From contig NMRA01000800.1 in assembly GCA_002633005.1 (NCBI GenBank), positions 1 to 64,000 of the forward strand: a stretch of 64,000 nt of DNA. Direction: 5' to 3'. Origin of the DNA: Phoronis australis (Eukaryota; Animalia; Phoronida). Positions 25,154 to 64,000 of the stretch are shown here, piece by piece (position 1 is the first letter of the stretch; each line of letters starts with the position of its first letter). The notes under the pieces were generated by a model, which was not told where the DNA came from, did not search any database, and worked only from the letters and a program-made list of their open reading frames with translations. The position numbers were made by a program, and so were the translations under genes.

Positions 25154-25993
25154 CTATGTTCTGTGTACATTTGTGTGTCCTTGGTGATTCCGACCACGAT
25201 TTCCCCTGTAACGCCCTCTAGATTTTCCTCTTCGCTGTTGTTGATGGTGGTTTTGCTGTCGTAGCGATCTCTGCGAGGATGTCTGTTGTGCTTTGCAAAT
25301 TTTCGAAATCGCAAAATGACCAAAACTGCCACAAGCGTGACATGTTTTGCCTCTGGCAGGACAGTTATCTTCGTAATGCGTTCTCGTGCATTTTTTACAA
25401 AACATCATGTGCCTTGTGTGACACACATTGTCCTCTGCTGTTTGGTTTTTTAGGTGCTGTTGTGACAGTTCACTTGCACGGCAAATTTTAATGACATTTT
25501 CCAACGTATAATCATTTACTTCTAAGTCTAGAAGTTTCAACTTGATGTGACTGTCGCGGACACCATTGACAGTTCTGTCACAAATAAATGTGTCTTCTAT
25601 GTCACCATAGTCACATCCCTTTGCGCGATGCTTCAGATCGGCAACAAAAGCCATAAGCGACTCACCGGCTTTGTGGTTGCGTTCCAAAAATGCTCGTCTG
25701 CGAATATTTCGGTACTTCTTGTGGCCATAGTGTTCATCAAAACATTTCAAAACCACGTCTAAATTATACCTGTCTTCCGGCGACAAATCAAATGTATTAA
25801 ACAATTTGACACCATCTGCCCCAAGGAGATGAAGTAAAATGTTTACTTTCTGTTTACCTGACGCATCCTCGAGTCCGCTTGCAATCAGGTAAATGTCAAA
25901 TCGCTGTCTCCACGGGCTCCAACTTTCTCCTGTTTTGTCAGTCTCTAGCTGTACAAACGGTTCTGGCGGGCTCACGTCTAGATTAGCAGCCAT
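25154..25993 (-). CDS. gag: Gypsy Gag protein, 279 aa, open frame
   Basis: W..WRQRFDIYLIA, LLHLLG.DG, FVADLKHRAKGCDYG and tandem Cys/His knuckles CKKCTRTH...C / CHACGSFGHFAISKIC. Confidence 0.9.
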   Translation of the reverse strand: MAANLDVSPPEPFVQLETDKTGESWSPWRQRFDIYLIASGLEDASGKQKVNILLHLLGADGVKLFNTFDLSPEDRYNLDVVLKCFDEHYGHKKYRNIRRRAFLERNHKAGESLMAFVADLKHRAKGCDYGDIEDTFICDRTVNGVRDSHIKLKLLDLEVNDYTLENVIKICRASELSQQHLKNQTAEDNVCHTRHMMFCKKCTRTHYEDNCPARGKTCHACGSFGHFAISKICKAQQTSSQRSLRQQNHHQQQRRGKSRGRYRGNRGRNHQGHTNVHRT

Positions 25994-28910: not shown

Positions 28911-29815
28911 AAACTGAGAGAAAAATAAACTGATTAGGTATGCAATATGAAAATTGATGAATTATTTTTTTTTATTTTTGCTTCTATTATAGTCATCAAG
29001 AAATTACAATTGGGTTTCTTGTGATATGGCAATTCGGTTGAAGAACGACAGAGTTACAAAAAGTTTTAAGGGCAGTAAATCCCATTGCACACAACGGAGC
29101 AAAGGAATGCAAACAACTCTATTAAAAGCGCAGCACAACCTCAGCGGCTGCAAGATGTGATTGGTATTCCAGGGAAAGATTTCCCTGTATTGCGTTAGCA
29201 CCAGTACGAGCGATTTGATTTTAACATTTAACTGCCTTTCCAACATTCAGTATTTTCCGTTAGTAAACAACCATTCGTATGAAGTTCAAAAATTACTTAT
29301 TTATCGTAATCTATTTTGCCCGGGGTACGCCACGAGCTATGTTGCAGAGTAAAACAAGAGGAGGATTGGGAATATTTGTCATTTATTATGACGTAATAGA
29401 TAAAACTAACTAAGACTCTGCAAGATGGGCATGCAGAAAACGCCATAGTGGCAGCACGGGAATGCTGACATCGCCCATCCGAGGTGCGAAACCCGGGCAA
29501 TAACAAGGTTAGACTATGATAAAATATAGGTACTAAACAGGATAACAGCAAATTAGAATACATAAGGCTAGAATATAAAAAACAAGAACATAACGAAATG
29601 GAAGTAAAGTTAACTAGAACTAATGACTAGAAATTGAAGCCTGCAACTACAGGCATTGGGCCACAGGCTGCAACAACAGACCTGCGAACGGGAGGAGGCC
29701 GGCTGCAACAACAGTCCTGACCTAGTGGGCTGAAACCACAGACCCAGAGGAGTGGGAGGGGCTGAAAAGCAAAGTGAGAGAAGTGGGGAGCTGCAACAAC
29801 AGGCTCACCAGGAGT

Positions 29816-30225
29816 TCAAGAAGCCTGGGGAAGAGGAAAAGCAGACATGCGAATGTAGTTTTTTAGTGCGTCAGATTTCCAGCGCCCCATGCGCTGGATC
29901 ACCGGTTCAGGGACGCCACGGCTGGCCGCAGAGGTGGCGGCGCCAATGCGAAAGCTATGAGACGTATAAGCCTTGGTGTCGAGTCCTACAAAGGAAACCA
30001 CTTTAGTTAACATGGAGTTGAAGCAGGAACGGGTAACCGGTGATCCACTGAGGTGTTGGAACAAGGGGCCAGGAGAGGGCTGAAAGGTAGACAAGTACAA
30101 GGTTAGGACAGCTAGTGGGCAATGGGGAGAGTGGCTGGACGGAATTGTAAGTGACACTGGTCCCGAGCTGTGCTTGAAGGTACGCAGAGTGATGAACACA
30201 GAATCGCCAGAGCGGGGGAAGACGA
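29816..30225 (-). pseudogene. Tyrosine recombinase, C-terminal fragment
   Basis: FKHS...CPL...PLF...HSFRIGAAT...GRWKSDALKNYIR retains catalytic H-x-x-R, W and Y. The N-terminus is deleted. Confidence 0.9.
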
Positions 30226-31395
30226 CGGCGCAGGAAGGCGCGGCCGGGCACGATGACGGAGCAGGCGAAGTTTAGTAGGCCAATGAGGGATTGCAGGTCA
30301 CGAAGAGTAACCTTGAGGCGCTTTTGGAAGTCGAGCAGGAGGTTGGAAGCTCTGTCCACCTTGTCCTGTGGGAGAGAAGCAGTCATGGTGGCAGAGTCAA
30401 GGTGGATGCCATAAATGGTGATGGAGGTGGTCGGTTGAATTGTCTTGTCGTGGTTGATAGGGATGCCTAGAGAGTCGCAGAGTGACATGAATGAGGCGAG
30501 GTTCCGGGAGCATGTTGGCGAGGATGGGGGGCCCACGAAAAAGAAGTCATCGATGTAGTGAGAAACGCCGGCGACCTTCAATTTGGTTTCCAGGATCCAT
30601 TGAATCGCAGAACTGACCTTTTCGAAGATGTTGCAGCTGGAGGCACAGCCAAATGGCAGGCACCTGTCGTAGTAGAAGTTGTTGGCCCAGGAGAGACCTA
30701 AGAAGTGGTAGTCGTCAGGGTGCACCGGTATGATGCGGAAAGCGTCATTGATGTCAGTCTTAGCCATGAGGGAGTGGCGCCCAAACCGTTGAACCAGGCG
30801 GATAGCGTCCGTGATGGATTGGTACTGGACTTGGGAGAATTCAGGGGGTATGAGGGAGTTAACTGAGTTAGAGTGACGGGATGGGTATGACAAGTTATGA
30901 ATGAGACGAAAACTGTTAGGGTGAGATTTAGGGATGAGGGCAAGGGGTGATGAAGAGAAAAGGGGGAAAGGGGGGGATGGGAAGGGACCAGCATANNNNN
31001 NNNNNNNNNNNNNNNNNNNNNNNNNNNNNNNNNNNNNNNNNNNNNNNNNNNNNNNNNNNNNNNNNNNNNNNNNNNNNNNNNNNNNNNNNNNNNNNNNNNN
31101 NNNNNNNNNNNNNNNNNNNNNNNNNNNNNNNNNNNNNNNNNNNNNNNNNNNNNNNNNNNNNNNNNNNNNNNNNNNNNNNNNNNNNNNNNNNNNNNNNNNN
31201 NNNNNNNAAGGTAACTTCGGGATTACGGAGAGCTGATGGGTGGTTGGTGGGGGGACTGGAGTGACATATCGGGGAGGCGCCGAATCTGAAACCAAAAGAG
31301 AAACCATTGATTAGCTCCGTAGTCGAGAGGGAGTCATAACCTGAAAGGAGAGGTTTAAGTTTGCTTACTTTTACGGGTGTTGGGATACCTGGCAT
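30226..31395 (-). pseudogene. DIRS/Ngaro reverse transcriptase (assembly gap inside, RNase H deleted)
   Basis: FRLIHNLS, KTDINDAFR, LPFGCASS, HYIDDFF, LQSLIGLLNFAC..GRAFLRR. Confidence 0.9.
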
Positions 31396-32180
31396 GTGGG
31401 TTGGTGGTTTTGGAGGTGCATGACCGCGCTGGGTGGTTCGCGCCGCAGAAGCCACAACGATGCTTGTATCGGCAGAGGGGAAGGTTGCAGGACTGGTCGT
31501 TGAACTTCCAGCAGATACCTGTGGGGAAAGAGTTGGTGTTTGGGGTGGGGGCACGGGGCCTCGAAAAAATGTGGAGGTGGATGAGCCCTGACAAAAGGAC
31601 TGACTGTTGGTTGGGTGGCGTTGGATCTTGTTGAACTTGAGTCAAACTTGGCGCCACAGGTCCCAGTGGATGTGGTCCCACTCGAAGGGGAAAGAAGACC
31701 GGAATTTCCTGAAATGGGTATCATAAAACAAGGCTGCAGAAAGGCCGTAGTGTGTGTTGCAGTCATGAACTATGGTCGAATACTTTAGGAGCTTAGGGGC
31801 ATCCTGTGGAAACTTCTGGACCAGGATGGACTGGAAAATATTGAAGGCCTGGGTCCACTGCAGAATGGATGAGATAGCCTTTGGACGTGCGGAGCTGTAA
31901 AAGACGGGAGTGTTACCGGTGAAGGAAATGGAGACAGAGGGAGTGGAGGAGGCGGATGGCTCACCTGAAAGGAGAGAAGAAAAGTCAATGAACTCGTTGT
32001 TGAAGATGCGTTGACGAGTTTTGGAGTCGACATGAAACCCCAGAGGCAATGACACATACAAATTATTCGAAGAAGGGTCAATACCCGAAAAAGACGGAGT
32101 GGTAGTCACATTGGAGGCTGAAGGTGGGGCAGTGAACGTCGGCTGGGAGGGGTAGATCGGAGGTGACAGGTCCAGCTGCT
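31355..32180 (-). pseudogene. Ngaro gag-like ORF1, C-terminal part, disrupted
   Basis: RIFNNEFIDFSSLL, W..AF.IF, YDTHFR and CWKFN...C...CRYKHRCGFCGANHPARSC, with a stop and frame change near 31640. Confidence 0.8.
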
Positions 32181-32442
32181 GCATTTAACAAGTTAAATTT
32201 AATTTATAGCAGTAAAACTGTTTTTTCGGGAACGACGCCTCGGATTTATGTTTTAGGTAACACAAATGAACGAACCTAAACAAATTTGGCGTTGTACATG
32301 CAAATTTACTCAACCAGCAGACTGCACTCCAACAGTGAAATACGGCCCCTACCGTTGTATACGGATTTGTTTTGCTTTCCCGTATTTCACACCACAATTT
32401 CTGGTTTATTGAATGTCCGTATTTATACGTATATCAAGGCCT

Positions 32443-32858: not shown

Positions 32859-35371
32859 AGGCCTTGATACGTAAAATGTAACAATTTCGTAAAATATAAC
32901 AAGTGTTATATTTCATATCATTGTTACATTTTTCGTTGATAGGCCTCTCTCTAAAATGTAACGAGTTGTTAATTTTATGCAATTGTTACAATTTACGTCG
33001 AATTAACATGCGAGAAAAGTACGATCGTTACATTTTACGAAAGCGACGTCGTATTTCAAGTGTTTGAATGGTATTTGTCACACGGAGGAAAATCGTTCAC
33101 ACACTTAACGCCTTCTTTCTCGGATTGTGTGAATGAAATTCTATCAAATGTGCCAGGTCGAATTTTTAGATGTATCTCTATGTGCTTTCTGTGGTTTTTT
33201 AACAGGAGTTGTTTGATGGTATAGTCCAAAATGTACAGCGTAATGTTTCAATTCCACACGAAAGGAGTTTCCAGGATCAGGTGATTCTCTTAGGTCATAA
33301 CCCAATTGTGTATCAGGCAAACTTCCCTTGTTCAGCACAACAATGACATCGTGTTTGGCTAATATTTATCACATTTCTTCGAGAACAAACGACAAAAACA
33401 ATTTTCACGATAATTCAATTTTGGAAGCCAATTTGATAGAAAATAGATCAGTTTTAGTCAACGATAGTTTATTTCGGCCATTGTTTTATTGTCTTGGAGT
33501 CATTGCTAATGCAGTAATTGCCCTGCTTCACACAAATGGATCAAAACCAAAGTTGCTGATACCCACGGGTTCTGTCTACCACCTAAGTTACGAATGACAC
33601 ATTCTTAGACATATTGTGGTGGAAGAAGAGCACGTATTTATTTGCCGGCAGGTTGACTGGCTTTGCCAAAGCAACAGCAAAATATCGCCTTTGAGCACGG
33701 CGACCCAATCTAGTGTAAAAAGTGGCGGCATAGTAACGTGTGTTCTACAGCTGAAAGAAAGTTCCTATGTTGTCTAACCTGCCTGAAATAGTGGTGGTAA
33801 CAACAGATGAAAGCGTGACGTGTATACGTAAAATGTGATGCCTAGCTGGGGAAATAGAAAATATTTTACACTCTGAAAGGACATAATCAGTTTGCTCAAA
33901 CCTGGTCCAGGTCGATAATTTAAAGGAACAGTAGTCCAAAGAAGCTGACTGTCGGCCTTTAGGACTATAAAAACGTGCACTTTCTCTTTCTGTTATCTTT
34001 TAAGATAAAATATGAATTAAACTTGCTATTTGGTCAATGTTCGTCGGTTCGAAGTGCATATAAATGAAGACAAAAATTGGACATTCTATTATTAATGGTG
34101 TGAAGCCACTTGTCTGATGAGACGCCATTTCTGTGTTTCGCAGCTCGCAGATAAGGGTATTTGGTATATTAAACTTTTGATACAGTGCATTAATTGCTCA
34201 TATTAAACATCACTGACTTTGACTTTGGCCGTTTTTGTTCCATACAATCCACTTTCATCGAAACCTAGTTCAAATGACTCTGTTAAATCACTGTGGTTTT
34301 CCAAGAATTAGGGTGCCCGTTCCACATAAAATTGTTGCGCGTTTTGTATGTCTGTTACCAGCTACTCTAATGACCCGGTGACCAAACCCGACTAGTCGTT
34401 AGTTTTCGAAAAATGTCTGCCTCCACAGTTCGACTGAACGCAAGTTTTGAACCTACACATAATCGTGGAACGATACCCAATTCTTCTTCAAGGAATTTTT
34501 TCAACGAGAGACAAAAATGATTGCACGGTGGCTATCCTCACGTGAGTGCTTTTATTTCCGTCCACCACAATGTTTTTAAGAAATTGTCAGTCGTAACTTA
34601 GGTGGTAGACAGAACTCTTCGGCATCAGAAATTTGGTTTTGCTCCTTTTGTGTGGAACAGGGCAATTGCTGCATTAGCGATGATTCCAAGGCAATAAAAC
34701 ACTAGCCAAAATAAACCAAAATATTGTGGACTAAAACTGGCTTCCAAAATTGAATTCTCCATGAAAATTTTTGTTATTGTCGTTTGCTCCCGAAGAAATA
34801 TTATAAATATTAGCAAAGTACGATGTATTTGTTGTGCTTACCAAGGGAAGTATGTTCACTGTAATGCCGGATACACAATTGGTTTATGACCTGTGACCGT
34901 CAAGGTTTTTATTAACGTTTGAACAAGAGAAAACTTGTTACCTGATCCTGGAAACTCCCCTTGTGTAGAGTTGAAACTGTACGCTGTATATTTTTGAATA
35001 TACCATAAAGCTACTCATGTTAAAATAAACACGGAAAGCACATAGGGACACATCTACAAAATCGACCTGGCACATTTGCTCATAGAATTTCATTTACACA
35101 ATCCGTGATAGAAGGCGTTAAGTGTGTGAACAGTTTTCCTCTGCGTAACAATTAACATGCAAACTCATGAAATATGACGTCGCTTTCGTAAAATGTAACA
35201 CTAGTACATTTCTCGCATGAGCATTCTACGTAACTTGCAACAATCAAATAAAATGTAACAACTTGTTACATTTTAGAAGAAACTTAGCAACGTAAAATGT
35301 ATACAATGACGTAAAATGTACCAGTTGTTACATTTTACGAAACTGTTACGTTTTGCGGGGTATGGAGACCT
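32859..35371. mobile_element. Foldback-type non-autonomous DNA transposon with about 780-bp inverted arms
   Basis: 32859-33640 is the diverged reverse complement of 34545-35371. AAAATGTAAC motifs are iterated at both ends. Confidence 0.8.
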
Positions 35372-36745: not shown

Positions 36746-39700
36746 TAGACCGGCAGCCCAGAGCACTTAGCATAGATGAACGAGGTACCAACATCTGACC
36801 ACGGGAGCATTTAAAGTCCACCTCAGTATGTACAGAAATGGACGTCTGCCGTTGTCTGCACTCTGGTTGTGACCCCTGGGGGCCTTACAAACACCCCAAA
36901 AGATGAGCTAGACTAGATATTCGAGGTACCAACCAAAACTGATTTTAAACGAATAATAGTACCGCACTGAACACCGAAAGACACATGACAGACAAATTGC
37001 ACTCTGGAATGGGTCCGGCAGAAACCAAAAAAGTACCCCCCAAAAATGAGCTAGCACATACATTCGAGGTACCACACAAAACCAATTCCATATGATTCAA
37101 TACATGTCACAGATCACTAAAACCCCTATGACAGACAAATTACACTCTGGGTTGTGCCCGGCAGAAACCCCCAAAAATCTCAACCATGGTATGCCATCAA
37201 AAATTTGAGCTTAACTAGATTTTCGAGGTACCGGCCAAAACTGATTTTAAACGAACAATAGTACCGCACTGAACACCAAATGACCCATGACAGACAAATT
37301 NNNNNNNNNNNNNNNNNNNNNNNNNNNNNNNNNNNNNNNNNNNNNNNNNNNNNNNNNNNNNNNNNNNNNNNNNNNNNNNNNNNNNNNNNNNNNNNNNNNN
37401 NNNNNNNNNNNNNNNNNNNNNNNNNNNNNNNNNNNNNNNNNNNNNNNNNNNNNNNNNNNNNNNNNNNNNNNNNNNNNNNNNNNNNNNNNNNNNNNNNNNN
37501 NNNNNNNNNNNNNNNNNNNNNNNNNNNNNNNNNNNNNNNNNNNNNNNNNNNNNNNNNNNNNNNNNNNNNNNNNNNNNNNNNNNNNNNNNNNNNNNNNNNN
37601 NNNNNNNNNNNNNNNNNNNNNNNNNNNNNNNNNNNNNNNNNNNNNNNNNNNNNNNNNNNNNNNNNNNNNNNNNNNNNNNNNNNNNNNNNNNNNNNNNNNN
37701 NNNNNNNNNNNNNNNNNNNNNNNNNNNNNNNNNNNNNNNNNNNNNNNNNNNNNNNNNNNNNNNNNNNNNNNNNNNNNNNNNNNNNNNNNNNNNNNNNNNN
37801 NNNNNNNNNNNNNNNNNNNNNNNNNNNNNNNNNNNNNNNNNNNNNNNNNNNNNNNNNNNNNNNNNNNNNNNNNNNNNNNNNNNNNNNNNNNNNNNNNNNN
37901 NNNNNNNNNNNNNNNNNNNNNNNNNNNNNNNNNNNNNNNNNNNNNNNNNNNNNNNNNNNNNNNNNNNNNNNNNNNNNNNNNNNNNNNNNNNNNNNNNNNN
38001 NNNNNNNNNNNNNNNNNNNNNNNNNNNNNNNNNNNNNNNNCCAGAGTGTAATTTGTCTGTCATAGGGTATTTAGTGATCTGTGACATGTATTGAATCATA
38101 TGGAATTGGTTTTGTGTGGTACTTCGAATGTATGTGCTAGCTCATTTTTGGGGGGTCCTTTTTGGTTTCTGCCGGACCCATTCCAGAGTGCAATTTGTCT
38201 GTCATGGGTCATTTGGTGTTCAGTGCGGCACTATTGTTCGTTTAAAATCAGTTTTGGCCGGTACCTCGAAAATCTAGTCTAGCTCCCATTTTTGATGGCA
38301 TACCATGGTTGAGATTTTTGGGGGTTTCTGCCGGGCACAACCCAGAGTGTATTTTTTCTGTCATAGGGGTTTTCGTGATCTGTGACATGCATTGAATCAC
38401 ATGGAATTGGTTTTGTGTGGTACCTCGAATGTATGTATATGTCAGTTGCTACAGCTACTACAGGTCCAGCCTCAGTGACCCCAGCTCAACGTGGACTGAA
38501 AACTTGTGCATCATGAATATTAAACAAATGAAAGACATTTCAAAAGCTTTAGCTCAGAGAAACTACAAAGTTTGTACAAATACAGAACATCCTATAGTTA
38601 ACAATCTATGTAACATTACATCTTGAACAAATTGGCAGCCGTTGCATTTTACGCAGATTTTCATGTGGTAATTATTTGTCTAATGATGCAAAATAAGATG
38701 TGACATCAACCATTGAACAAAATTCCAGTTTGTTCTTAGCTTGTAGCTAAGCGAAATATTTGAGATACAAGATGGGATAAATATACCTTTCCGTAATTGG
38801 TGAAAAAATCTCCTAAATTTCAGAGAAAAATAAATGCAATAATCAGAAAAAGTGGTAGAAAGAGAGTGATGAGCCTTTAAGAGAAGAAGAAATCCGAAAA
38901 TCGCAATGAAATTCCTTGGCACGTTGATGAGATTTGAATGGGAATGACGGGGTGTCATAAAAACAATGAATTTGCTATCATCAAAAGCTGAGTGTGCATC
39001 AGCTGCATAATGAATCCTGTGGATACCACCCAAATCTGTAGACATTGTCTCCATCGTGGTACTTATTGAAGCTATCTCCTGCAACATCCTCCCGACCAAA
39101 CTCTTCATCTCCAAATCCGACATCGCTAATATCCACCCCATCTGGGATACTTTCTGGACTGCAATAAGAAAAACCGTGATGATCTTGCCCAGTAGAATTT
39201 CAAAAAAGGACACAACACCTTGACTCTATAACGCAGTTGAATTATTAAATAACAGGTCTTATATTTTGTGCACTGGAGAAAAGATTAATCCACCCCACCG
39301 TGCTTTCATTAGCGAGTTTTCAGGACCTGATAGTTACTAGAGTGAAAGGATTTCTGTCCAGTCAGGGCCTCAAACCCGAGATTCCTTGCTGACCATACAA
39401 ACTCTCTAGAACACCAAACTATTAGGACCATGTAAGTGAAAGATATATTTCCCCTATATACATTAACACCGTAGAAAGTAGACAATAATTATCTATTTTT
39501 TATAAAAAAATGGATAACTGATAATTTAAATGTATGTACCCAATTGCTATGTTGCATTTAAAGTCATCGTCCATGTCATCGCATGCTGTGTCCTCAGCAA
39601 CATCATTCCAGAGCACACATGTATGAGTTGTTGTAAAATGAAATACCACCACAAATTTTATGGATTGTGAATGCTACTTATAAAACCTCTTTAAAATCTG

Positions 39701-42700: not shown

Positions 42701-44213
42701 ATCCACAGCCATCTACTATCCTGTATCTTGTCAATGAGTCAGGTGTTTGTCGAATGGGTATAAGCGCATGCGCGCATTTATCATAAGTGGGAGGGAGATT
42801 AGTAATGTTATGTGTTTACCACGTTTCTTCGTACCTATTTAAAAACCGTGAATTGTGTGATTTTTGTAGAAATCCCCCCACAGCGGAAAGTGGACAACTC
42901 TGTGATAGAGGTTGCAAGAATGTACGCATGTTAAGGATTGTTTAAAACATATCTTTTGTGATATTCCTGGCAAAAATTATGCATAATTTATTATTTGAAT
43001 CGCGTCTTATATAACCCTACTTAAAACTTAGTAAGTAGGCCTACTAATATATTATTCTACTGCAGTACTGGCTCGTGTCACGGATCAGTATATACTTGCC
43101 AGCAGTAGTACAAAATATGTAAGGATGCCTTTCTTCGTATGCGTTTCTGAAACTGCAACTGGCAGCCTCACACTTCATGCCTCTTTTATGTTTTTTTCAG
43201 CACCAGACGGCACACTCACATTGCAGTCATTCATGTTGTTGCCCATTTGAATTGGCTCCTCTCAGAAGGTGGCGCTACATGTACTGCTTTGACATATTTA
43301 GATCAAAGACGTACATCTTGATGTAAACTATAATATCATTACAATAAATCTGAAACAATTTTTGTTTGGATTGCAACTCGGGCAAATGTGACTTTTTTGG
43401 TATATTAGAACCACGCACTATTTTGGCCGGTACCTCGAAAATCTAGTCTATCTCAAATTTTTAATGGCATACCATGGTTGAGATTTTTGGGAGTTTCTGC
43501 CTGGCACAATCCAGAGTGTAATTTGTCATAGGGCATTTAGTGGTCTGTGACATGTATTGAATTACATGGAATTGATTTTGTGTGGTACCTCGAATATATG
43601 TGCTAGCTCACTTTCTTGGGGGGGGGGGGCTTTTGTGGTTTCTGCCGGACCCATTCCAGAGCGCAGATTTGTCTGTCATAGGTCATTTGGTGTTCAGTGT
43701 GGTACTGTTGTTCGTGTAAAATCAGTTTTGGCCGGTACCTCGAAAATCTAGTCTAGCTCAAAAGTTTGATGACATAACATAGTTGAGGTTTTTGGGGGTT
43801 TCTGCCGGGCACATCCCAGAGTGTAATGTGTCTGCCATAGGAGTTTCAGTGATCTGTGACATGTATTGAATCACATGGAGTTGGTTTTTTGTGGTACCTC
43901 GAATATATGTGCTAGTTCATTTTTGGGGGTCCTTTTTGGTTTCTGCCGGACCCATTCCAGAGTGCAATTTGTCATGGGTCGTCTGGTGTTCGGTGCGGTA
44001 CTATTGTTCGTTTTAAATCAGTTTTGGTTGGTACCTGGAATATGTACTCTAGGTCATTTTTGGGCCCTTTATAAGGCCCCCAGGGGTCACACCCACAGTG
44101 AAGACAACGGCAGACGTCCATTGCTGTACATACTGAGGTGAACTCTAAATGCTCCCGTGGTCAGATGTTGGTACCTCGTTAATCAATGCTAAGTGCTCTG
44201 GGCTGCCGGTCTA
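36746..44213. mobile_element. Long-TIR element with TAG...CTA ends (Academ-like) and tandemly repetitive arms
   Basis: TAGACCGGCAGCCCAGAGCAC at the left end is inverted at the right end. Arms 36746-37300 and 43420-44213 are built from about 305-bp dimeric units. No TSD found. Confidence 0.65.
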
Positions 44214-45427
44214 TTTATCATTTTTAGCGGAATGGGAAAATAGGGCTATGTCGCGTGGGAAACGACACTAATTAATCATATCATGTCAATTCTACCGTCA
44301 GTCAAAAACGAGTATACTAGTCAAAACATCAAAAAATAGGGCCGTCCGCGAAGGGGGGGGGGACCATTTAGCAAGAGCAATGTACGTTGTCGATAACACA
44401 AATTATTGGTCAGGATTCTTATAAGTGGTGAGCATGGCATTTTGTAAGTGTATTTCGCAGGATTAGGAAAATACTATAAATAAGATCAATGCTCATAAAT
44501 CGAATTAGCAATATGTATAGGCAAAAAGTAAACATTGGATAAATAAAATATCATAGAACCAATACAAAAACACTTATAATGTATACATGCATGTATTCAC
44601 ACGCACTTAAACACGGTCCTAGCTACGCAAATGAATCCACGAGGAGTTTTTCGAAAGTTACTTTAAAGCATAATTATATGTGTTTAACACATATACGTGT
44701 CAGTGAGCTTTTCATGTATAATAGCAGAACAAACATTAAGAAACCAAATACCACGTCTTTCCATTAAATACTGTAGCATGGTTTTAACACCCAAACGTCT
44801 TGTTCAAACTCCTAACATGCACTTTGTGTTGTCGAACGTGGCCCTCAAACTGGAGCTAGATATCAGCTAGATAAATATCAGAGGTATTCGGCCAGGGCCA
44901 CAGTTCGGTGCCCTTAAAGAATGACCAGCTTTCAAGTGACGATTTGTAAGTTGATTAATTTTGCCGCGTAATTGCCGGTTGCCTAAAACCGTGCCTCAAG
45001 AGTCTTGAGTGTGAAAAACGACAAAATGAAAATGAAGCAATACAATTAGACTTGATTTCATAACAACGCTTGATCAAAACTCAGTCGAGCAGACAACCGG
45101 AATCTCACGGAGCAAACTATCGCTGCAAGCCAGTCCTGTGAAATCTCGGAGTCGCAAACTAGAATGCATGGGAATTCCATTCCTACAGTCATGTGCAACG
45201 TGGACTGACTCTAGTGGCTTCAAAGTTTTCATGGGAACAAAAATAGTCTTGTTACAACGATATGCACAAACATAGCTAAAACGTTACGTTGTGGTAACGT
45301 TGTGACTTTGCTGAGCAATCAGCTGTAGAATCTGTGTTCGAGTCTATAATTATATTTTCTGAGCGCAGGTACATGTACCACAAGTGTTGGTCAACAGATA
45401 AAGCTTGAAGTCCTGCTTGCTTCCGGC

Positions 45428-50631: not shown

Positions 50632-51269
50632 CTACAAAATGAACGTTTTATAAAAGCATGAAATCAATGAAGGTAATCAAAATCTTGAAAACGCGTTTAC
50701 TTACGCCAACATAAAGAAATCAAAAGAAGGAAATGTGATTAGAGACCCTAAAAATAAAGCTGACACAGTTAAACGAAATTAATTAGGCTTATGAAACTAT
50801 GTCATAAATCGCTTTATTCGGGTAAATGAACTAAATAGTTTCCCTGTTTAGTGCCTCCATAGCCCTCTCGCACTTCTGACTGGCTAGGTCAACGCTACTC
50901 CTCTGTCAGACGTTCGAGCGACCTACAGTGTACAATCACGCCAAAATCCATGTCTCCACAGACACCAGACATGGACACTAGGTAAACAAAGACAGTAACA
51001 AATAGGGGTGCCAAAGACCTTGCCGAGACCTCCAACAGCGAGACCTCTGCATCCCAAAATGCTGTTAATCCGCTGTCTCCAGTGGGTTAATGGTCCCAGT
51101 TAAGAGGTGCATCTCAGCCTCTATTCTCAGTGTGTACCCCATAATGGATACTCGTGTGCCCACTTCCCTCCACGCAAAAATTCATGACGGCCAGTATATT
51201 CACATAAATACCCTTTTGTTTACACCCATCTCTCCTCCACAACAGGTTACGGTTACGGATATACATGTA

Positions 51270-52608
51270 GCTTCTGCTTTCGACTGTGTCCCTCACGATC
51301 TTCTTCTTCACAAACTTCGATCCTATGGCATCACTGGGAATCTTTTAAACCTGATCACCTCATATCTCTCCGATCGTACATACAGTGTTCGTGTCGACGG
51401 CGTACTTTCATCTTTATCCCCTCCTGGATTTGTAAACGCAGGTGTACCGCATGGTAGCGTATTGGGCCCTCTTGTCTTCTTGGTTTATATTAATGACCTT
51501 CCTGATAACCTATCATACCTTTATGCAGATGACACGGCGCTTTTTTACTCCTTCGCGGGGAGCAGCCCTGAAAGTTCTTTGCAGCTTCATCACGACTTGA
51601 ATAAAGTCAGTTATTGGCCACAAGAATGGAGAATGAATTTTAAGCCAGAAAAAGCGTTGACCTCACCTCCTCCAAATCTATTAATATTCTCTTCCTTGTT
51701 GACCCGTCTTATGACCTTAAACTTAATGAAGAAATCATTCCTAGAAAACAGTCGCACAGACATCTTGGTATACTATTAGATAAAAAACTCTCATTCACAC
51801 CTCACGTTCGGGAGCTCGTAAAAAACTCAGGAACTAATTAACCCACTTAAGCTTGTCTCTCGTCATATGAATTCTACACATTTAGAAGTTCTGTTCAAAT
51901 CCTTTATACTTCCACACATCGATTATTGTGATATTATATATCAGTCTGCCAATACTGGTGCACTCCAGCATTTGGACAACAACTGGAATTCTCTTCCAGT
52001 CTCTGTTAAGGAAAGCAACTCTTTTCCGAGTATAAAAATAATTTTAGAACTGTTTTTCATAATTTCGATAACTCAACACCATTGACTCAATTCTCCCTTC
52101 CCGCGATATCGAAATAGCAAACTGTAAATGTGGTGACCATCAGTCTTATCCTCATGTTTTGCCTCAAATGTCTCCTCACCGAATACCTGAGAGGCTCACT
52201 CTTTCGTGCACTCAATGAAAACCAATCAATTGTTGAAGCTCTCAATTCTTGTAATAATATCCCTACTAAAATTACATTATTATTGAATGGTAGTCCTAAC
52301 CTTGAACTTGTTCTCAATGAATTCCTCCTAAGCAAAGTTTTATGTACCGTTTATAAACATTGTTGCATCTGATTTCCATTCACAAATCTGTTACATGTTT
52401 TTGTCTTTATATGATCGTAATAGCATACCTAAATATTGGAAAGCTTATATTAGATACTACTTGAATTTATAAACCTCTAGGTATATTAATTTCGTTCATG
52501 AATCGTCTACAACCCAGATATAATGCTTCGCGATTTCTGGGTTTGTCATTATTTCTTTGTATGTTCTGTGTATTCTTCAATAAATATATATCACTTTAAA
52601 CAAAAAAA
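51270..52608 (+). mobile_element. CR1-type LINE, 5'-truncated and degenerate
   Basis: SAFDCVPH..LLHKL..YGI.G, GVPHGSVLGP..FLVYINDL, YADDT, and a 3' AATAAA with an A-rich tail. Confidence 0.88.
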
Positions 52609-52702: not shown

Positions 52703-54331
52703 GAGGCGCACTGATACGCCGTACAATGTAACAATTTTGTAAAATGTAACAACTGTTACATTTTACGTTGTTGAGCCTCTCCTAAAATGTAACAAGTTAC
52801 ATTTTATGTAATTATTACAATTTACGTCAAACGCACATGCAAGAAAGGTACTATTTTTATATTTTACGAAAGCAACGCCATATTTCATGAGTTTGAATGG
52901 CATTTGTCACACGGAGGATAACCGTTCACATACTTAACGCTTTCTTTCTCAGATTGTGTAAATCTAATTCTATCAAATGTGCCAGGCCGAATTTATAGAT
53001 GTACCCCTATGTGCTCCCCATGGTTTTTAGCATGAGTAGTTTTATGGTGTAGTCCAAAATGTACAGCGTGCAGCTTCAACTCCACAAGAAAAGAGTTTCC
53101 AAGATCAGGTAACAAGTTTTTTTATTGTTTAGGCGTTCTTGCAATCTTTTTTGACGCTCAAAAGTCATTAACCAATTGTGTGTCCACCATTACAGTAAAC
53201 ACACTTCCCTTCGTATACACAACAATGACATCGTATTTGGCTAATATATATAACGTTTTTCGGGAACAAAGGACAATAACAACATTTTAATGAAGAATTC
53301 AATTTCGGAAGTCAATTTGATAGAAAAAAAATCAGTTTTAGTGCACGATAGTTTGGTTTATTTAGGCTATTGTTTTATTATCCTGGAGTCATCGCTAATG
53401 CAGAAATTGCCCTGCTCCACAAAAAAAGAGAAAAACCAAAGTTGCTGATGCCGACGGGTTCTGTCTACCACCTTAATGGAAGAAAATAAAAGCACGGATC
53501 TATTTGCCTGCAAGTTGATGAATTTTGCCAAAACAACAACAAAATATCGCCTTTGAGAAGGGCTAGTCAATAGTTTATTAAAGTGGCCGCATAGTAACTT
53601 CTTTTATAAAGCTTAAAAGCTGAAACAAATATCATTGTTCCTATGATGTCAAACCTGTGAGAAATAGTAGGGGTAACAACAGGTCAAATAGTCACGTGTA
53701 CAGGTAAAAATGGGATGCAAAATGGGGCAATTGTCCAAAAAAGCTGACTGTCGGCGTTTCGGACTACGAAAACATGCTCTTTCTTTTTCTCTTTTCTTTT
53801 TAAGATAAAACATGAATTAAAGTTGCTATTTGGTCATTGTTTGTTAGTTCAAAGTACATGTAAATAAAGACAAAGGCTGGCCTTTCTATTATCAATGGAT
53901 GTGAAGCCACGTGTCTCATGAGGCTTCATCTTTGTGTTGAAGCTCGCAGATTAGGGAATTCACGCTTTTGATATTTTGCAATAAATGCTCATATCACACA
54001 TCATTGACTTCGACGTTGGCGGTTTTTTTCCGTACATTCTACTTTCAGTGACACCTAATTCAAATCATTTTGTAAAATCATTGTGTTTTCTAAGAACATT
54101 GGAGCCCGTTCCACATAAAATCGTTGGGTGTTTTGTATGTCCGTTACCAGCTATTCTAATGACCCGGTGACCGCAGTCGACAAGTCCTTAGTTCTCGAAA
54201 AATGTCTGCCTCCAGAGTTTAACTCAACACAATTTTTGAATTTACATATCATCGTGGAACGATCCCAGTTCTTCGACAAGAAATGTTTTCAACAAGAGAC
54301 AAAAATTATTACACAGTGGGTATCCTCACGT
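52703..54331 (+). mobile_element. Second, one-armed copy of the foldback family at 32859-35371
   Basis: Colinear with 32859-34543, ending at TATCCTCACGT. Confidence 0.8.
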
Positions 54332-54400
54332 TTAAATGCAAGTCACGGGTAAAATATGACGGTCTGAATTAAGTTCTTCGAGAAGAACTAAAGATGGTTA

Positions 54401-54891
54401 TTTGGACGTGTAGAGCTGGAAAAGACGGGAGTGTTACCGGTGAAGGAGATGGAGACAGAGGGAGTGGAGGAGGCGGGTGGCTCACCTGAAAGGAGAGAAG
54501 AAAAGTCAATGAACTCGTTGTTGAAGATGCGTTGACGAGTTTTGGAGTCAACATGAAACCCCAGAGGCAATGACACATACAAATTATTGGAAGAAGGGTC
54601 AATACCCGAAAAAGACGGAGAAGTAGTCGCATCGGAGGCTGAAGGTGGGGCAGTGAACGTCGGATGGGAGGGGTAGATCGAAGGTGACAGGTCCAGCGGC
54701 TGGCTAACAGTGAGCGGCGGAGCGGTAGAATCTGCGTCGTAGAGCTTTTTCAATTCTGCAGCCAGCTTAGTATAGTCAATGACGGGTGGCGACGGCTGGA
54801 TTTCGGGTAGTGCTGGTGGCGCTGGTGGAGGACGCCCGAAGGGACTTGCAGACTTGCGGGTGGATGCCCTGGTGGCTTTCTTGGGTGCCAT
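54401..54891 (-). pseudogene. Ngaro gag-like ORF1, N-terminal half (3'-truncated)
   Basis: MAPKKATRASTRKSASPF...IDYTKLAAEL...RIFNNEFIDFSSLL. The ATG lies 1 nt after a strong splice acceptor. Confidence 0.8.
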
Positions 54892-55050
54892 GCTGGAAAA
54901 GGAAAAACATACTGAGTAGACCACCGAGGAAAAAAAACCATGGTGGGGACACCTGGGGGCACAACTGCCAAAGGGAAATGAGTAAAAAATGGGAAGTACA
55001 GGGAATATAATCATCCCGAAAGGGAAGACAGAACCTCGTCGTGGAAAAAC

Positions 55051-55421
55051 ACCGCCGAAAGTAGTGGTTAGAACAGGGTATTATAAGGCCCCCTGCAGGC
55101 AAACCGCCGAAATAGAATTGAGCGAGCGAGGTGTAAAAAGTGGAAACAAGAGGTACAACCCCTAGGAGGGATAGAGAAATAACTAGAGGGCTATGTAAGC
55201 CAGAACAAGGAGAAAAAACCTCCAAGTAACCGCCGAAATAATGTGTAGTTGGCAGGGATTAAGCCCCCCTGAGGGCAAACCGCCGAAAGTGAAAGAATTG
55301 AGAGGAGGCGAATATGGGGATATAATAATCCCATGAGGGAAGAACCTCGTGGAGAATACCGCCGAAAAGGAGACTAATATGACAGGGCATTATAAGGCCC
55401 CCTGTAGGCAAACCGCCGAAA
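55051..55421. repeat. Array of six ACCGCCGAAA motifs in three pairs
   Basis: Motif starts at 55051/55103, 55229/55279 and 55358/55412. Confidence 0.85.
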
Positions 55422-55529
55422 GTCAATACTTAGAACGAGGTGTAAAGTAAGGGTCCGAATGTAATGATACAAAAACTACCAGGAATAACTGGACGGAAAG
55501 GGGAGGGGAGCGGGAAGGGTGGGGCGGAA

Positions 55530-56132
55530 CTAGAGGGTGAGAAGGCCAAGTTCACGAAGGTGGTGACCGATGGCCACGCGAATGCTGAAGGCGTGTTTAT
55601 GAAGGCCAGAGTGGTTAAAGTGGATGCCGTCGGGGCGGTAGAGGTGGTTGGGGTTAGCCCAGAAACCTCCCTTGTGAGTCCAAAAATGAATGTGGGGCTC
55701 GTGGGATAGGAGGGATTTAAGTGCTGAATTGAAGGAGAGAAGGCGAGAACGAAAACGCCTACCGGCGTGTAATCGGTGAAACGCCTGTCCGACGAGGACC
55801 CGACGGACGTCGTAGGCAATTAACAAGAAACGGGCGAAAGAAACGAGGTGGGAGGCCAAGGCGTGGGGTGAGATGGTGGTGGAGTGGAGGTCATTCCCTC
55901 CGATCTGGAGAAAAACGAGGTCAGGAGAGGAACGGGGAAGGGAACGGGTGGCCGGTTGGATGGACTTAGGGCCGGGGAGAAGGGTCCCGCCCGATATGCC
56001 CAGGGACGAAATAGTGACCTGGGAAGGGCGGAAGCCGTAGTTATGGAGGTAGCGGGCCTGGGGAGCGTCGGACACGAAGTTGTGCAGCCAACGAACGTAG
56101 GAACTGCCAAGGATGAGAACATGGGGCGACAT
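55530..56132 (-). CDS. SGNH/GDSL-family hydrolase (esterase), 200 aa, retrotransposon-borne
   Basis: Block I LILGSSYV, block II LGISGG, block III QIGGNDL and block V DGIH are all present in an uninterrupted ORF. Confidence 0.85.
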   Translation of the reverse strand: MSPHVLILGSSYVRWLHNFVSDAPQARYLHNYGFRPSQVTISSLGISGGTLLPGPKSIQPATRSLPRSSPDLVFLQIGGNDLHSTTISPHALASHLVSFARFLLIAYDVRRVLVGQAFHRLHAGRRFRSRLLSFNSALKSLLSHEPHIHFWTHKGGFWANPNHLYRPDGIHFNHSGLHKHAFSIRVAIGHHLRELGLLTL

Positions 56133-57977
56133 GGGGTATAACGTGAATAAAAAGGTTGGTTAAAATCAGAAAAAACGGGACTTACCTCGAAAAGGACGAA
56201 GTAAAGCAGGAACGAGAAGTGACAGAGCGTCGCACCCGAACGGAGTAAGGGTCAAAGGTCGAAAGGAAACGAAGAAATGCAAACAAAAAATGAAGAGAAC
56301 GAACGTAGGTCTTGTAGATGACGAGGTAGGTGGCTGAATGAGAGACCACGTTGAACAGAACAAAGGAAATATGGGCGACCAATCAGGAGTCGCGTAGAGA
56401 AATGCATGAATACAAAAGTAGGCCCTAGAGGCTATAAATAGAGATGAGTAATGCAAAATAAACCCTAAGGAGTGGTATCAAAATAAAGAGACAAGTGTCA
56501 AAATAATGACGATAAATGCATTTAACAAGTTAAATTTAATTATTTTATGGATTGTAACTCCAAAACGTGTGTTCACAGGGACTTACCTGAAACGGATGGG
56601 TTTATTAATCTGCGTAGCAAAATGTTTCATGTACATCTGTTTTCCACTGCGTATTAGCATGACTTGATTATGCTTGACAGAAACGATTAGGTGAAAATGA
56701 ATACTGGCATACTCCTTTCAAAGGTAAAGTTTAAGTACGTTTTAAAAGGTAAGGATACATCATTATCTTTACAGCGTATTATTCCGAAAACTATTGCCTA
56801 AACCACGGATTCGATAGCGCACCCTGGTGTTACACTACCTCCAAAAATAAAAGATGGGAATTGTGCGATGTTCCGGTCTGTGGTAAGTTAAACATTTATC
56901 GTTCCACGCTAATAAGATATAGTCTATCACAAGCACGCTCATGGCTAATTGCCAGATGGCACTGAGGGGGATTTCCTACAGATCTCTTCTCTAGATTGCG
57001 TACATCAACTCTCGTTGTCTCGTATTCTCTAAAATGGATTGCCAAGAGATCGTTGATAGAAATATAACTTGTCCATAACGCAATTTACATTAAATCATTA
57101 TGACAGAACTAAAATAACCCTATAAGTTAAATAATATAAACGATATCTATGTTAAATGACCCGTTTTCGCGTCACTAATACAGCACTTTAAAGTAATTTT
57201 GAATTTTTGGTTACCGTAAAATCAGCTCAGTCTTGAGAACCTCCAATTTATGATGTCCTTTTGTAAAATATTTGTTGAGCTGACGACTCAGTCAAATTCA
57301 ACGATTACGCATTCACAATAACACTGGTTTGTGGAACCTTATCAACAAGTCTACATATTTTGCTTAATATCTGCAAAATGAAGGTAGGTTACGTTCAGCA
57401 TAGTGCCGGGTCATTAAAAGTTGGCCCTCTCCAGCCGACTTTTCTACTGCTTTTGTACCCACCCATGTTCAATTGTGTTTTAAAAGTTTATAAAAACACT
57501 TCTGACAGATAGAGATGGAATCTGAAGTTGCAAGTGATATACACAATAGAGTCGAGAATGCTTTCGTTGTCGACGAATCTGGATCAACACACCCTCGAGG
57601 TGCCCTGTCTCAAACTCAAAAACCAGTTGGGATAACCGACCTAAATAAACAATTTGTGCTCATTCCACTTAGCTATATGTGAGAATGTGAAACAGGTTAA
57701 AGAAGACGCTTATATAGCAGCCAACGAATCTAAACCTATGAGTGTCTTTGAAGTGCAACATAGACACAATGAGCACTCGTATGACTAATCTACAGAAACG
57801 TGCCACTGAATTTGGACTACAGACCAGGAGCACACTTTGATTGTCAGGCAATCTGAAGAACCCCAGAGGTCCTGGAACAATTTTGAATTCGTCGTTAAGA
57901 ATTTTCCCTGGAATCAGCTTAGTACTGGTCAGGATATTTGTATTGCGAACCCTTGTTACTTTCTCTGTAGATAGATC

Positions 57978-61550: not shown

Positions 61551-64000
61551 AATCAATCAACTTTTTATTTCAGTACTTAGACCTCCGTCCCGTATACAAG
61601 TATGAAAGTAGGAAATACAAGCGTAATTAAAAAGTGGTCGACATAATAAAGACTTTAAACTTAACTAATCACAAAAAACTGAAACGAGCTAAGTTCCAAA
61701 CGTTGCAAGACTTCATCAAATAAATGAAGTGATCACCATCAAAGTTATTACTAGTAAGACAAGTATCAAACTTTCTCCTAAGATCTTCATATACTGGACA
61801 CTCTAGTGAAACCCGTTTTATATCCACAACAGTGTCAGAACACACAGAGCAGAAACGCTGACATCTAGGTATACCCACGTGTCTGCCAGTTTCGATTTTT
61901 GTTTATGATTTGAACATCTAAAACGTGCAAGAGCTGTGATAAAATATTTTTTGTCTAGACATCTTGCATATTCTTCTAGAATGAGTCTATTTATAAACAA
62001 TTTATACTAAAATATAACATTTCATCCAGCCATTGCTGCTCATTTATGTTTTTACATCTTTGTTTGAATTCGTCTAAAAACAATTCTTCGTTACCAACTA
62101 CTTGACTGACCCAAAAAATACCAAACCAAGCCCTGAAAATTAGGTTTTTAACGCGGAGATCTCAGCTTTCGTGATTTCTTTCTGCAAAGCCATTCTGAGG
62201 CAATTTCAACAATTTCAAACAATATTTAATAATCCTAGTAATCCTCTTTGACACCATTGTAAACCTGCCTAGCTCATTCCTACCACGAATTTACCAAATT
62301 TATTTTGAATAATCTCGACATTTGGTTAGCGTCAAAACCTGACAATTCCGAACCATACATACAATAGGGCACATTTTAGTATCAAACAGTTGTAACCAAA
62401 CATTTACAGCAACACATTTGTATAGTGACATGTACTTTTTCAACAAAAACAAGACTTTTCCAGCCTCATCTGCTGAATCTGACTGTGATATTTGTAACTA
62501 ACCTCATCAATGATTTGTTCTCTGTTAATGAACCATTTTTCATAATTACGTAAGTATCCTCCTTAAATACACTAGATCGCGCAAAACATACAACCCATCC
62601 AAAAACAGGAACGTGCCATAGTTCATAAAAATCTGTCAAGGAACTTCTTAGAAACAAAAGAAAACAGAATAAAATGAAATTGCCACTAGTGGGCACAGTG
62701 TCCGTTGGATCCGCCTGAAAGTCGTCGTCGTCGTCTGTTGTTATCTTCATATAAATACACTTACTAAATTTAGTAAAGATCCTGCAGTGGGAGAAAAACA
62801 AAACTACCACTAGGAGGCGCCACAGTGGTCAGTCATCATCATCAAAGTTCGTCTTCACAATGAGAACATATATGCTAATTTTCAAATGATTTGGTTGATA
62901 CAGGGGTAGACACGAAAAACAAGATTTGAAAACAGCAAAAATGGCCACTAGGTGGCGCAAAATACCTTGATTCCATCCAAAAACAGAAAGATAGCGTCAT
63001 AAAACCAATAAAGGTCTATATTTAAAATTTTATGAAAATCTGTCGAGGACCTTTGAAGATACAGAGTTAAACGTAAAAAACTAAAATTGCCACTAGGGGG
63101 CACAGCAGTAGTCAGATAGATCTGTCCGAAAGTCGTCGTCATCCGTTTGTTAACATCATATAAATATACTTACTAAATTTCGTAAAGATCCTGATAACGG
63201 TTTACGAGATACAGACATAGGCGCAAAAAAACTGCCACTAGGAGGCGCCACAGTAGTCGAAATCGTCGGAAAATCATCGTCAACTCAACTGGACTCTTCA
63301 TAGTAAGCACATACATGTACATGCCAATTTTCACAATCATCCTTTGAGCAGTTTGGTTGATAGAGGCCTTGGGCACAAAAACAGACTCAAAAACAGTAAA
63401 TATGGCCACTAGGTGGCGTAAACTATGTCGAATCCACCCGAAAACGGGAGGATAGCGTCATCTCACTAATAGTTGCCTTCCTATCAAATTTCATGAAAAT
63501 CCGTTCAGGACTTTTGAAGCGTAAAAAACTAAAATTGCCACTAGGGGGCTCACCGGTATTTGAATGCGTCCGAAAGTTCGCTCATGCCGTCCCATTTATG
63601 AATGGAACATTTGTGCCAAATTTCATGAACGTACAGTATGTCAAAGGGTTTTGGAGATAGAGCACCGGACGGACGGATGGACGGACAGAGATGACGGCAT
63701 AATGCGTCCACATATAAATATGTGGGCGAATAAAAATAGTCTTCATTTTCTCCAACATTGTTGGTGAAGACACCCTTAAAACTTTCGAACCAATCAATAG
63801 CCGTAATTGCTTCCTTGGCTTCAGCAGAAACCGAAACTTCTTTATATTGCTGTCTTTTGAAGCTAAAGGAAGATCTTTAGTTAAAAATATGGAAAATATC
63901 TTTCTCCGAGCACACATCGATTTGAAATCTTTACGTTTATCTCCATAAATTTGTAAAGAAGCATTGCTGTCATCCCTCCGAATAAATGTCAGACATTATT
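61551..64000 (-). mobile_element. Degenerate RTE-X-like LINE, interrupted by a HINE
   Basis: LARFRCSNHK...R.C..C...ECPVYEDLR zinc-finger tail, AATAAA and a short (TTGA)n end. Coding-like remnants appear to continue past 63736. Confidence 0.7.
62571..63735 (-). mobile_element. Helentron-associated element (HINE) with about 140-bp core repeats
   Basis: Terminal hairpin CGTCCACATAT-AA-ATATGTGGGCG (63705-63728), (GGAC)n microsatellite, seven tandem core units and a CTAGT end on the minus strand. Confidence 0.75.

Follow-up and report, generated by a model that had tools for sequence, protein, structure and literature searches.

An SGNH hydrolase gene within a spliced intron upstream of gag in a Ngaro-like retrotransposon of Phoronis australis

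How retrotransposons with a tyrosine recombinase (YR) express their several open reading frames (ORFs), and what role the hydrolase of some Ngaro elements plays, are open questions, and a natural intron with exactly defined ends bears on both. Such an intron lies in the stretch analysed here, positions 1 to 64,000 of Phoronis australis contig NMRA01000800.1 (assembly GCA_002633005.1; hereafter the window, 64,000 nucleotides (nt) long), which contains two damaged copies of one YR retrotransposon family, both on the minus strand. An earlier, sequence-only reading of the first copy had described an AUG-free leader with a splice donor, followed by a 200-amino-acid (aa) SGNH hydrolase ORF, a motif array, an acceptor and the C-ATG of gag, all of which lie at the coordinates it had given. 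It had also proposed that splicing selects the product, in reverse of the retroviral gag/env arrangement; the gene order and the splice in RNA are shown, each RNA would be translated into the protein predicted for it, and a regulated switch is a mere possibility. Our reading, to which we assign a probability of about 0.72, is that the SGNH gene sits in an intron 5' of gag, that this intron is spliced, and that the hydrolase is likely translated from unspliced RNA and Gag likely from the spliced form.

The removal of the intron from RNA is real. Three raw RNA runs (X2, X3 and X4, chosen by species label, three samples from one study, less than one fifth of each run being read) contain 53 reads that join 56186 exactly to 54892, the minus-strand splice of 1293 nt that had been predicted, with CT..AC at the joint on the plus strand and hence GT..AG on the minus strand. 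All three runs contribute (20, 9 and 24 reads in X2, X3 and X4, with 17, 9 and 21 start places), the overhang reaches up to 69–73 nt on the shorter side, and every one of the 53 reads has its first mate on the plus strand and none on the minus strand. Three other joints were listed, none of which has GT-AG ends. Two are in X3 and on the opposite strand, a skip of 79 nt past the hydrolase (3 reads) and a skip of 571 nt (6 reads), and the last occurs in a contig of X1, a set of contigs that may be DNA or RNA. The region 54330-56700 was mapped with all four runs, to which X2, X3 and X4 contributed 1861, 1710 and 946 mapped reads, and the second copy with three of the four. Read depth is zero in the flank bins from 56570 outward, so the reads likely come from other copies of the family.

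Unspliced RNA is seen alongside the spliced form. Sense reads are present over the intron, with about 12–35 in the X4 intron bins versus 61–96 over gag, and from the donor on into the hydrolase ORF the X4 depth hardly changes, at about 31–35 over 56169-55930. The spliced share is roughly 0.45, 0.22 and 0.50 in X2, X3 and X4 from junction reads, and 0.53, 0.33 and 0.64 from depth, figures that combine read counts with depth and are no demonstration of regulation. In X1, contigs run unspliced through the two splice sites, at depths of 112 and 83; the spliced form is not among them, but contigs drop rare forms, so its absence is not proven.

At the level of sequence, the donor CGAG/GTAAGT, from which the intron starts at 56185, is the best-scoring of 89 GT sites in 56541-54890 by a crude weight matrix, and downstream of its own AG no further AG occurs until the hydrolase ATG at 56132. 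The acceptor, which ends at 54893 and is followed by C-ATG, had been called strong; it is used in RNA, but its pyrimidine count does not place it in the top 6 of the 34 AGs compared on this pyrimidine-rich strand. The leader at 56404-56133 is free of ATG, a property that 9% of shuffles reach too and that is weak evidence alone, and by sequence alone neither acceptor nor leader is strong evidence. An ATG at 56407 is private to the first copy, nearly all reads carrying another base at 56405, and TATA-, CCAAT- and initiator-like words at 56440, 56383 and 56341 are candidates only. The gag AUG has A at -3 and G at +4. A second donor-like CAG/GTAAGT stands at 56586 on the minus strand, in the flank 45 nt outside the element, with no reads over 56586. 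The 5' end of the intron (56180-56133, minus strand), directly before the hydrolase ATG, resembles a pyrimidine tract without an AG; one may speculate that it is the relic acceptor of an ancestor with a 3' spliced hydrolase.

The position of the hydrolase relative to the ends of the element has to be pieced together from both copies. The first copy (56541-54401) is broken off within gag, and for reverse transcriptase (RT) and YR the second copy (29299-32204) and reads are the only sources. Loose read ends at the gag break of the first copy continue into the gag of the second, and those at 32180 and 32181 carry repeat and gag sequence that the first copy has and the second lacks. Because read ends at each break match the other copy, the order of the family can be given as A, SGNH, gag, RT/(RNase H), YR, B, where A is the 5' terminal repeat and B the 3' end. 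In the second copy, depth runs unbroken from the recombinase stop (29816) as far as 29299, and beyond 29298-29300 the flanks are mixed (agreement 0.55–0.67), as for a terminus common to many insertions; no hydrolase was recognisable between recombinase and terminus among the loose ends listed (18 of 112 rows inspected). A joint from the 3' end (29299) to the start of A (32201) is carried by 41 X4 reads, 58 X2 reads and one X1 contig, with six letters that fit both sides, an overlap that may be like a recombinase crossover core. The 5' flank of the first copy itself is not a B end. Since the stretch from recombinase to terminus is without a hydrolase, the terminus joins to the start of A, and that flank is not a B end, the hydrolase lies just inside the 5' terminus. 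With one SGNH match only in the whole window, the mapping to the 3' terminus also bears out the earlier statements that the hydrolase stands upstream of gag with none after the YR of the second copy. Nor is it the 3' end of a tandem neighbour, as it lies on the 5' side of the terminus of its own element. Of the split direct repeats typical of Ngaro (A1-ORFs-B1-A2-B2), the junction of the B end with the A start is thus seen; a junction of the A end with the B start of the family was not among the loose ends listed (24 of 104 rows inspected for the first copy, 18 of 112 for the second), both window copies being incomplete.

X1 depth is about tenfold higher over the terminal segments (56250-56489 and 29303-29405) than over the coding parts, with other flanks, and the 5' terminal segment at 56285-56490 shows strong antisense RNA in X2 and X3. 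This suggests, as a guess, solo AB repeats (PMC8547959) or a high-copy sister or non-autonomous family.

The identity of the element is suggested by its other parts (Table 1). The gag N-terminus has a basic stretch and the words IDYTKLAAE in common with a Mytilus gag-pol model, and the ATG at 54891 is likely the gag start. In the second copy gag, RT and YR follow one another on one strand, RNase H being seen only in relatives. We call the element Ngaro-like on account of the order of its genes, termini that join head to tail, the presence of a hydrolase, and relatives that gave no methyltransferase match; no methyltransferase family (Pfam, E 0.05) was found in the 9 RT relatives scanned of 482 matches, the corresponding part being deleted in the window. 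The RT motifs, too, appear Ngaro-like. A DIRS-like identity was considered and set aside, there being no inverted match between the termini, which join head to tail.

Table 1. Coordinates of the features of both element copies in the window
Feature	Positions	Strand	Remarks
5' terminal repeat (A)	56285..56541	-	first 25 nt match second copy 32204-32180 at 25/25; loose ends at 56541 and 56285
Apparent first exon, AUG-free leader	56186..56404	-	
Splice donor GAG/GTAAGT	56180..56188	-	used in 53 reads
1293-nt GT-AG intron with hydrolase ORF and 8 ATGs	54893..56185	-	read joint 54892-56186, CT..AC on plus strand
Intact 200-aa SGNH hydrolase ORF	55530..56132	-	S11, G48, N80, D168, H171; isoelectric point 11.4
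Six TTTCGGCGG motifs, three two-motif units	55052..55421	-	between hydrolase stop and acceptor
Splice acceptor, 1 base 5' of gag ATG	54893..54909	-	
5' part of gag, break at 54401	54401..54891	-	95% identical to the second copy across 302 nt
Second copy: 25 nt of repeat A joined via internal deletion to rest of gag	31355..32204	-	Cys/His zinc-finger-like end in shifted frame
Second copy: RT	30231..31395	-	RNase H and recombinase start deleted near 30230
Second copy: YR, C-terminal part	29816..30226	-	passes the cut-off for Phage_integrase (E 5.5e-7)
Second copy: 3' non-coding region and 3' terminus (B end), without hydrolase	29299..29815	-	

The ORF at 56132-55530 matches Lipase_GDSL_2 above the Pfam cut-off (E 2.1e-8). 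Residues S11, G48, N80, D168 and H171 are conserved in at least 90% of 40 aligned sequences, and hydrolase relatives at 32–52% identity keep the same catalytic residues. A predicted model built on 40 sequences (predicted local distance difference test score 96.5) has an SGNH fold and matches platelet-activating factor acetylhydrolase and other SGNH esterases with template modelling scores of about 0.6–0.76, while the best sequence match in the PDB is 4C1B, the esterase of the long interspersed nuclear element (LINE) ZfL2-1 (E 0.0036). The protein would be very basic, with an isoelectric point (pI) of 11.4. No longer, fused forms were found among the homologues, which is weak evidence, and 111 of the 150 best homologues are short with a Met start, which does not prove a free protein since gene callers on contigs force such starts. 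The product is likely a basic, membrane-binding esterase like the ZfL2-1 ORF1 protein, but a free protein. The X1 contig over the ORF is gap-free inside it, and the six read variants listed for it (four amino-acid changing, two silent) are a small subset that proves nothing.

A homologue search of 1.84 billion representatives (E up to 0.001) gave 888 hydrolase relatives; three of 20 that were looked up carry animal names, all bivalves, and one a generic enzyme name. Among the homologues, a 2341-aa protein (P0027) has several SGNH-like repeats and a Pfam OSK match. In Mytilus edulis, three SGNH proteins that are nearly the same and one RT protein (P0008, P0153, P0154 and P0201) lie close together in accession number, a hint that such elements may be clustered. 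No loci came from the viral contigs that were scanned, two weak bacterial matches came from prokaryote genomes, and a metagenome scan gave four SGNH loci (L001 to L004). L001 has the same order on one strand, with SGNH (at 1778; 32% identical), gag, a zinc finger and the start of RT, and no recombinase match was obtained in it, including the 1.8 kb before SGNH. Splice-like sites are found there too: AAG/GTATAA stands 76 nt ahead of the SGNH ATG, and gag starts with a pyrimidine tract and AAG/ATG. The L001 ATG-free stretch was delimited afterwards, which inflates the shuffle value. The conservation of the splice sites that had been asked of other copies was approached through reads, which likely come from such copies, and through this one distant locus. 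L002 and L003 have SGNH without a gag, RT or YR match and are uninformative on order. L004 is ambiguous, with a distant SGNH 1.37 kb after a recombinase stop: at 1455-1495 a pyrimidine tract with CAG is followed by AAG/GTACGT and then by the SGNH ATG within 15 nt. Directly ahead of that ATG there are hence both a strong donor and an acceptor-like site, and splicing there could use one or the other. A FastTree with midpoint rooting was made of 88 sequences, of which 84 are proteins selected from 151 by rank and length and four are translations of DNA (L003 was excluded). One clade of this tree has 16 members and support 0.90; the window protein lies in one of its halves and the L001 protein in the other, and scallop and mussel proteins belong to it too. 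From the contexts of the window and L001 only, a 5' hydrolase may be a feature of the whole clade.

The intron holds a further feature of possible function. The motif TTTCGGCGG occurs six times in the window, all within the intron, versus 0.17 expected, and the folding energy of the array is not unusual (z -1.3); speculatively, the array is a candidate signal to select, export or protect unspliced RNA. The L001 intron has three similar words versus 0.5 expected, by a pattern that was chosen afterwards and is a lead only. A second motif array, four CTGTWGTTGCAG copies versus 0.01 expected, lies at 29641-29802 on the minus strand, just 3' of the recombinase stop.

The proposed mechanism would run as follows. 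A promoter within the 5' repeat would give one transcript. Where the intron is kept, a scanning ribosome would reach the hydrolase AUG first, and the eight intron AUGs that precede gag would bar scanning to it; where the intron is removed, the gag AUG would come first, in good context, and RT and recombinase would be made from the spliced RNA by the route these elements use. New copies retain the hydrolase, so the RNA that is copied must be the unspliced one, and Gag and RT from the spliced RNA would therefore act in trans, as has been reported for the RT of DIRS-1 (PMC7192593, in the passages available). The locus offers a defined gag message and a defined free 200-aa putative esterase open to assay, and predicts that unspliced RNA is selectively copied, with a candidate signal within the intron. 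More tentatively, and with more doubt than belief, we envisage a mollusc-type Ngaro clade with the esterase before gag, in which gag, RT and recombinase depend on splicing, the genomic RNA would be unable to yield Gag itself, and the intron motifs are the signal by which Gag picks out unspliced RNA for copying; if true, message and genome would be different RNAs in this retrotransposon, and its packaging signal would be built in and open to mapping.

Several observations weigh against our reading. Over the intron, antisense signal equals sense signal in X2 and X3 (X4 has little antisense over the coding part), and intron-covering reads could be pre-mRNA or read-through from a host gene. A single study stands behind all three raw runs, each read to less than a fifth. 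Some expressed copies carry an 8-nt deletion in the hydrolase, in 11 of 69 reads in X2, 18 of 52 in X3 and 0 of 18 in X4. The context of the hydrolase AUG is weak, with C at -3 and U at +4, an ATG at 56521 opens a 7-codon ORF if transcription starts upstream of it, and L001 is a single degenerate copy with a modest donor, its splice sites being read off the letters.

Three other explanations have to be weighed. It is unlikely, in our judgement, that the splice gives the Gag message while the hydrolase comes from a separate short RNA that starts in the intron or ends in the motif array. Sense depth does dip (to 2–13) at 55450-55529, just past the hydrolase stop, seven X2 molecules start at 55220, and the weak context of the hydrolase AUG would fit; yet the dip coincides with many mismatches and an X1 contig break and is possibly a mapping effect, the pile-up at 55220 appears in one of three raw runs, no AATAAA is seen in the intron, and the level X4 depth (about 31–35) across the donor into the hydrolase ORF points the other way. 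We think it quite unlikely, too, that the hydrolase is a rarely translated passenger which the intron keeps clear of gag, the unspliced RNA being genome only. This would agree with the transcription of frameshifted copies and with the three ORFs, without hydrolase, of most Ngaro families in the available parts of PMC8547959 and PMC7192593, but the ORF is intact with a full catalytic set, relatives at 32–52% identity keep these residues, the layout recurs in L001, and the X1 contig is gap-free over the ORF.

Very improbable is the view that an ordinary Ngaro element, with the hydrolase as its 3' ORF, only gives a 5' look because of a tandem or rearranged copy. Reads from the 3' end to the start of A are expected from tandem copies too, L004 has its distant SGNH 1.37 kb after the recombinase, and mussel SGNH and RT accession numbers are two apart, which fits either order. 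Against this, the terminus that the two copies and the mixed flanks define has the hydrolase inside it, the second copy has none after its recombinase, and L001 has no recombinase in the 1.8 kb before SGNH. Moreover, splicing connects gag with sequence that lies 5' of the hydrolase, so hydrolase and gag share a transcription unit.

Elsewhere in the window, another dispersed repeat, direct and inverted (52801-54331, 32972-34543 and 34561-35259), adjoins both copies and lies near the break of the first. A gag-like ORF of 279 aa that weakly matches a zinc knuckle is found at 25154-25993 on the minus strand, an RT fragment of another retroelement at 51090-51779 on the plus strand, and arrays of units of about 140–160 nt, direct and inverted, at 36894-38468, 43421-44226 and 62662-63558.

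Retroviral gag and env share one donor in the 5' leader, and spliced and unspliced RNAs differ in their first ORF. The order is reversed in the element described here, with the accessory gene on the unspliced RNA and gag on the spliced RNA. Introns in some elements were reportedly noted by Goodwin and Poulter in 2004. In BARE1, Drosophila copia and Ogre, as covered in the accessible part of PMC3735527, splicing likewise gives the Gag message and the unspliced RNA has to be copied; what is cut out there is pol or a short part of gag, or else the splice falls between ORFs, whereas here a whole accessory gene upstream of gag is removed. The ZfL2-1 ORF1p esterase (4C1B; PMC3905857, available passages) has the same SGNH catalytic set, lies at the 5' end of a retroelement and has a pI of 10.8 versus 11.4 here; it hydrolyses esters and binds acidic lipids. 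It is, however, a domain of ORF1p joined to a coiled coil in a non-long-terminal-repeat element, in contrast to the predicted free 200-aa protein of a YR element. No 5' hydrolase or natural intron in a Ngaro element was found in the literature searched by title, abstract start and passages (including the parts seen of PMC9210276, PMC7192593, PMC6681497, PMC4157794, PMC8547959, PMC7599744 and PMC3735527); a prior description is possible, as the founding Ngaro papers and repeat databases lay outside that search. PMC3783388 makes no mention of intron, hydrolase or splicing, and the preprint 10.64898/2026.02.25.703748 none of hydrolase or SGNH. The nearest relatives in layout are Xenopus DIRS-53_XT and DIRS-54_XT, for which the available text of PMC9210276 likewise gives gag, RT/RNase H, YR and an SGNH ORF, with a 5' repeat of 236 bp versus about 257 bp here, calls the function of the Ngaro hydrolase unproven, and mentions neither intron nor splicing. 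This Xenopus-type placement was tried for the present element and does not apply, SGNH standing before gag with none after YR: in the Xenopus elements the hydrolase follows YR and all ORFs overlap, whereas here it precedes gag with an ATG of its own, in a spliced intron. Relative to the literature searched, much of it available in part, a hydrolase after YR is thus known in Ngaro, and a hydrolase before gag inside a spliced intron is new.

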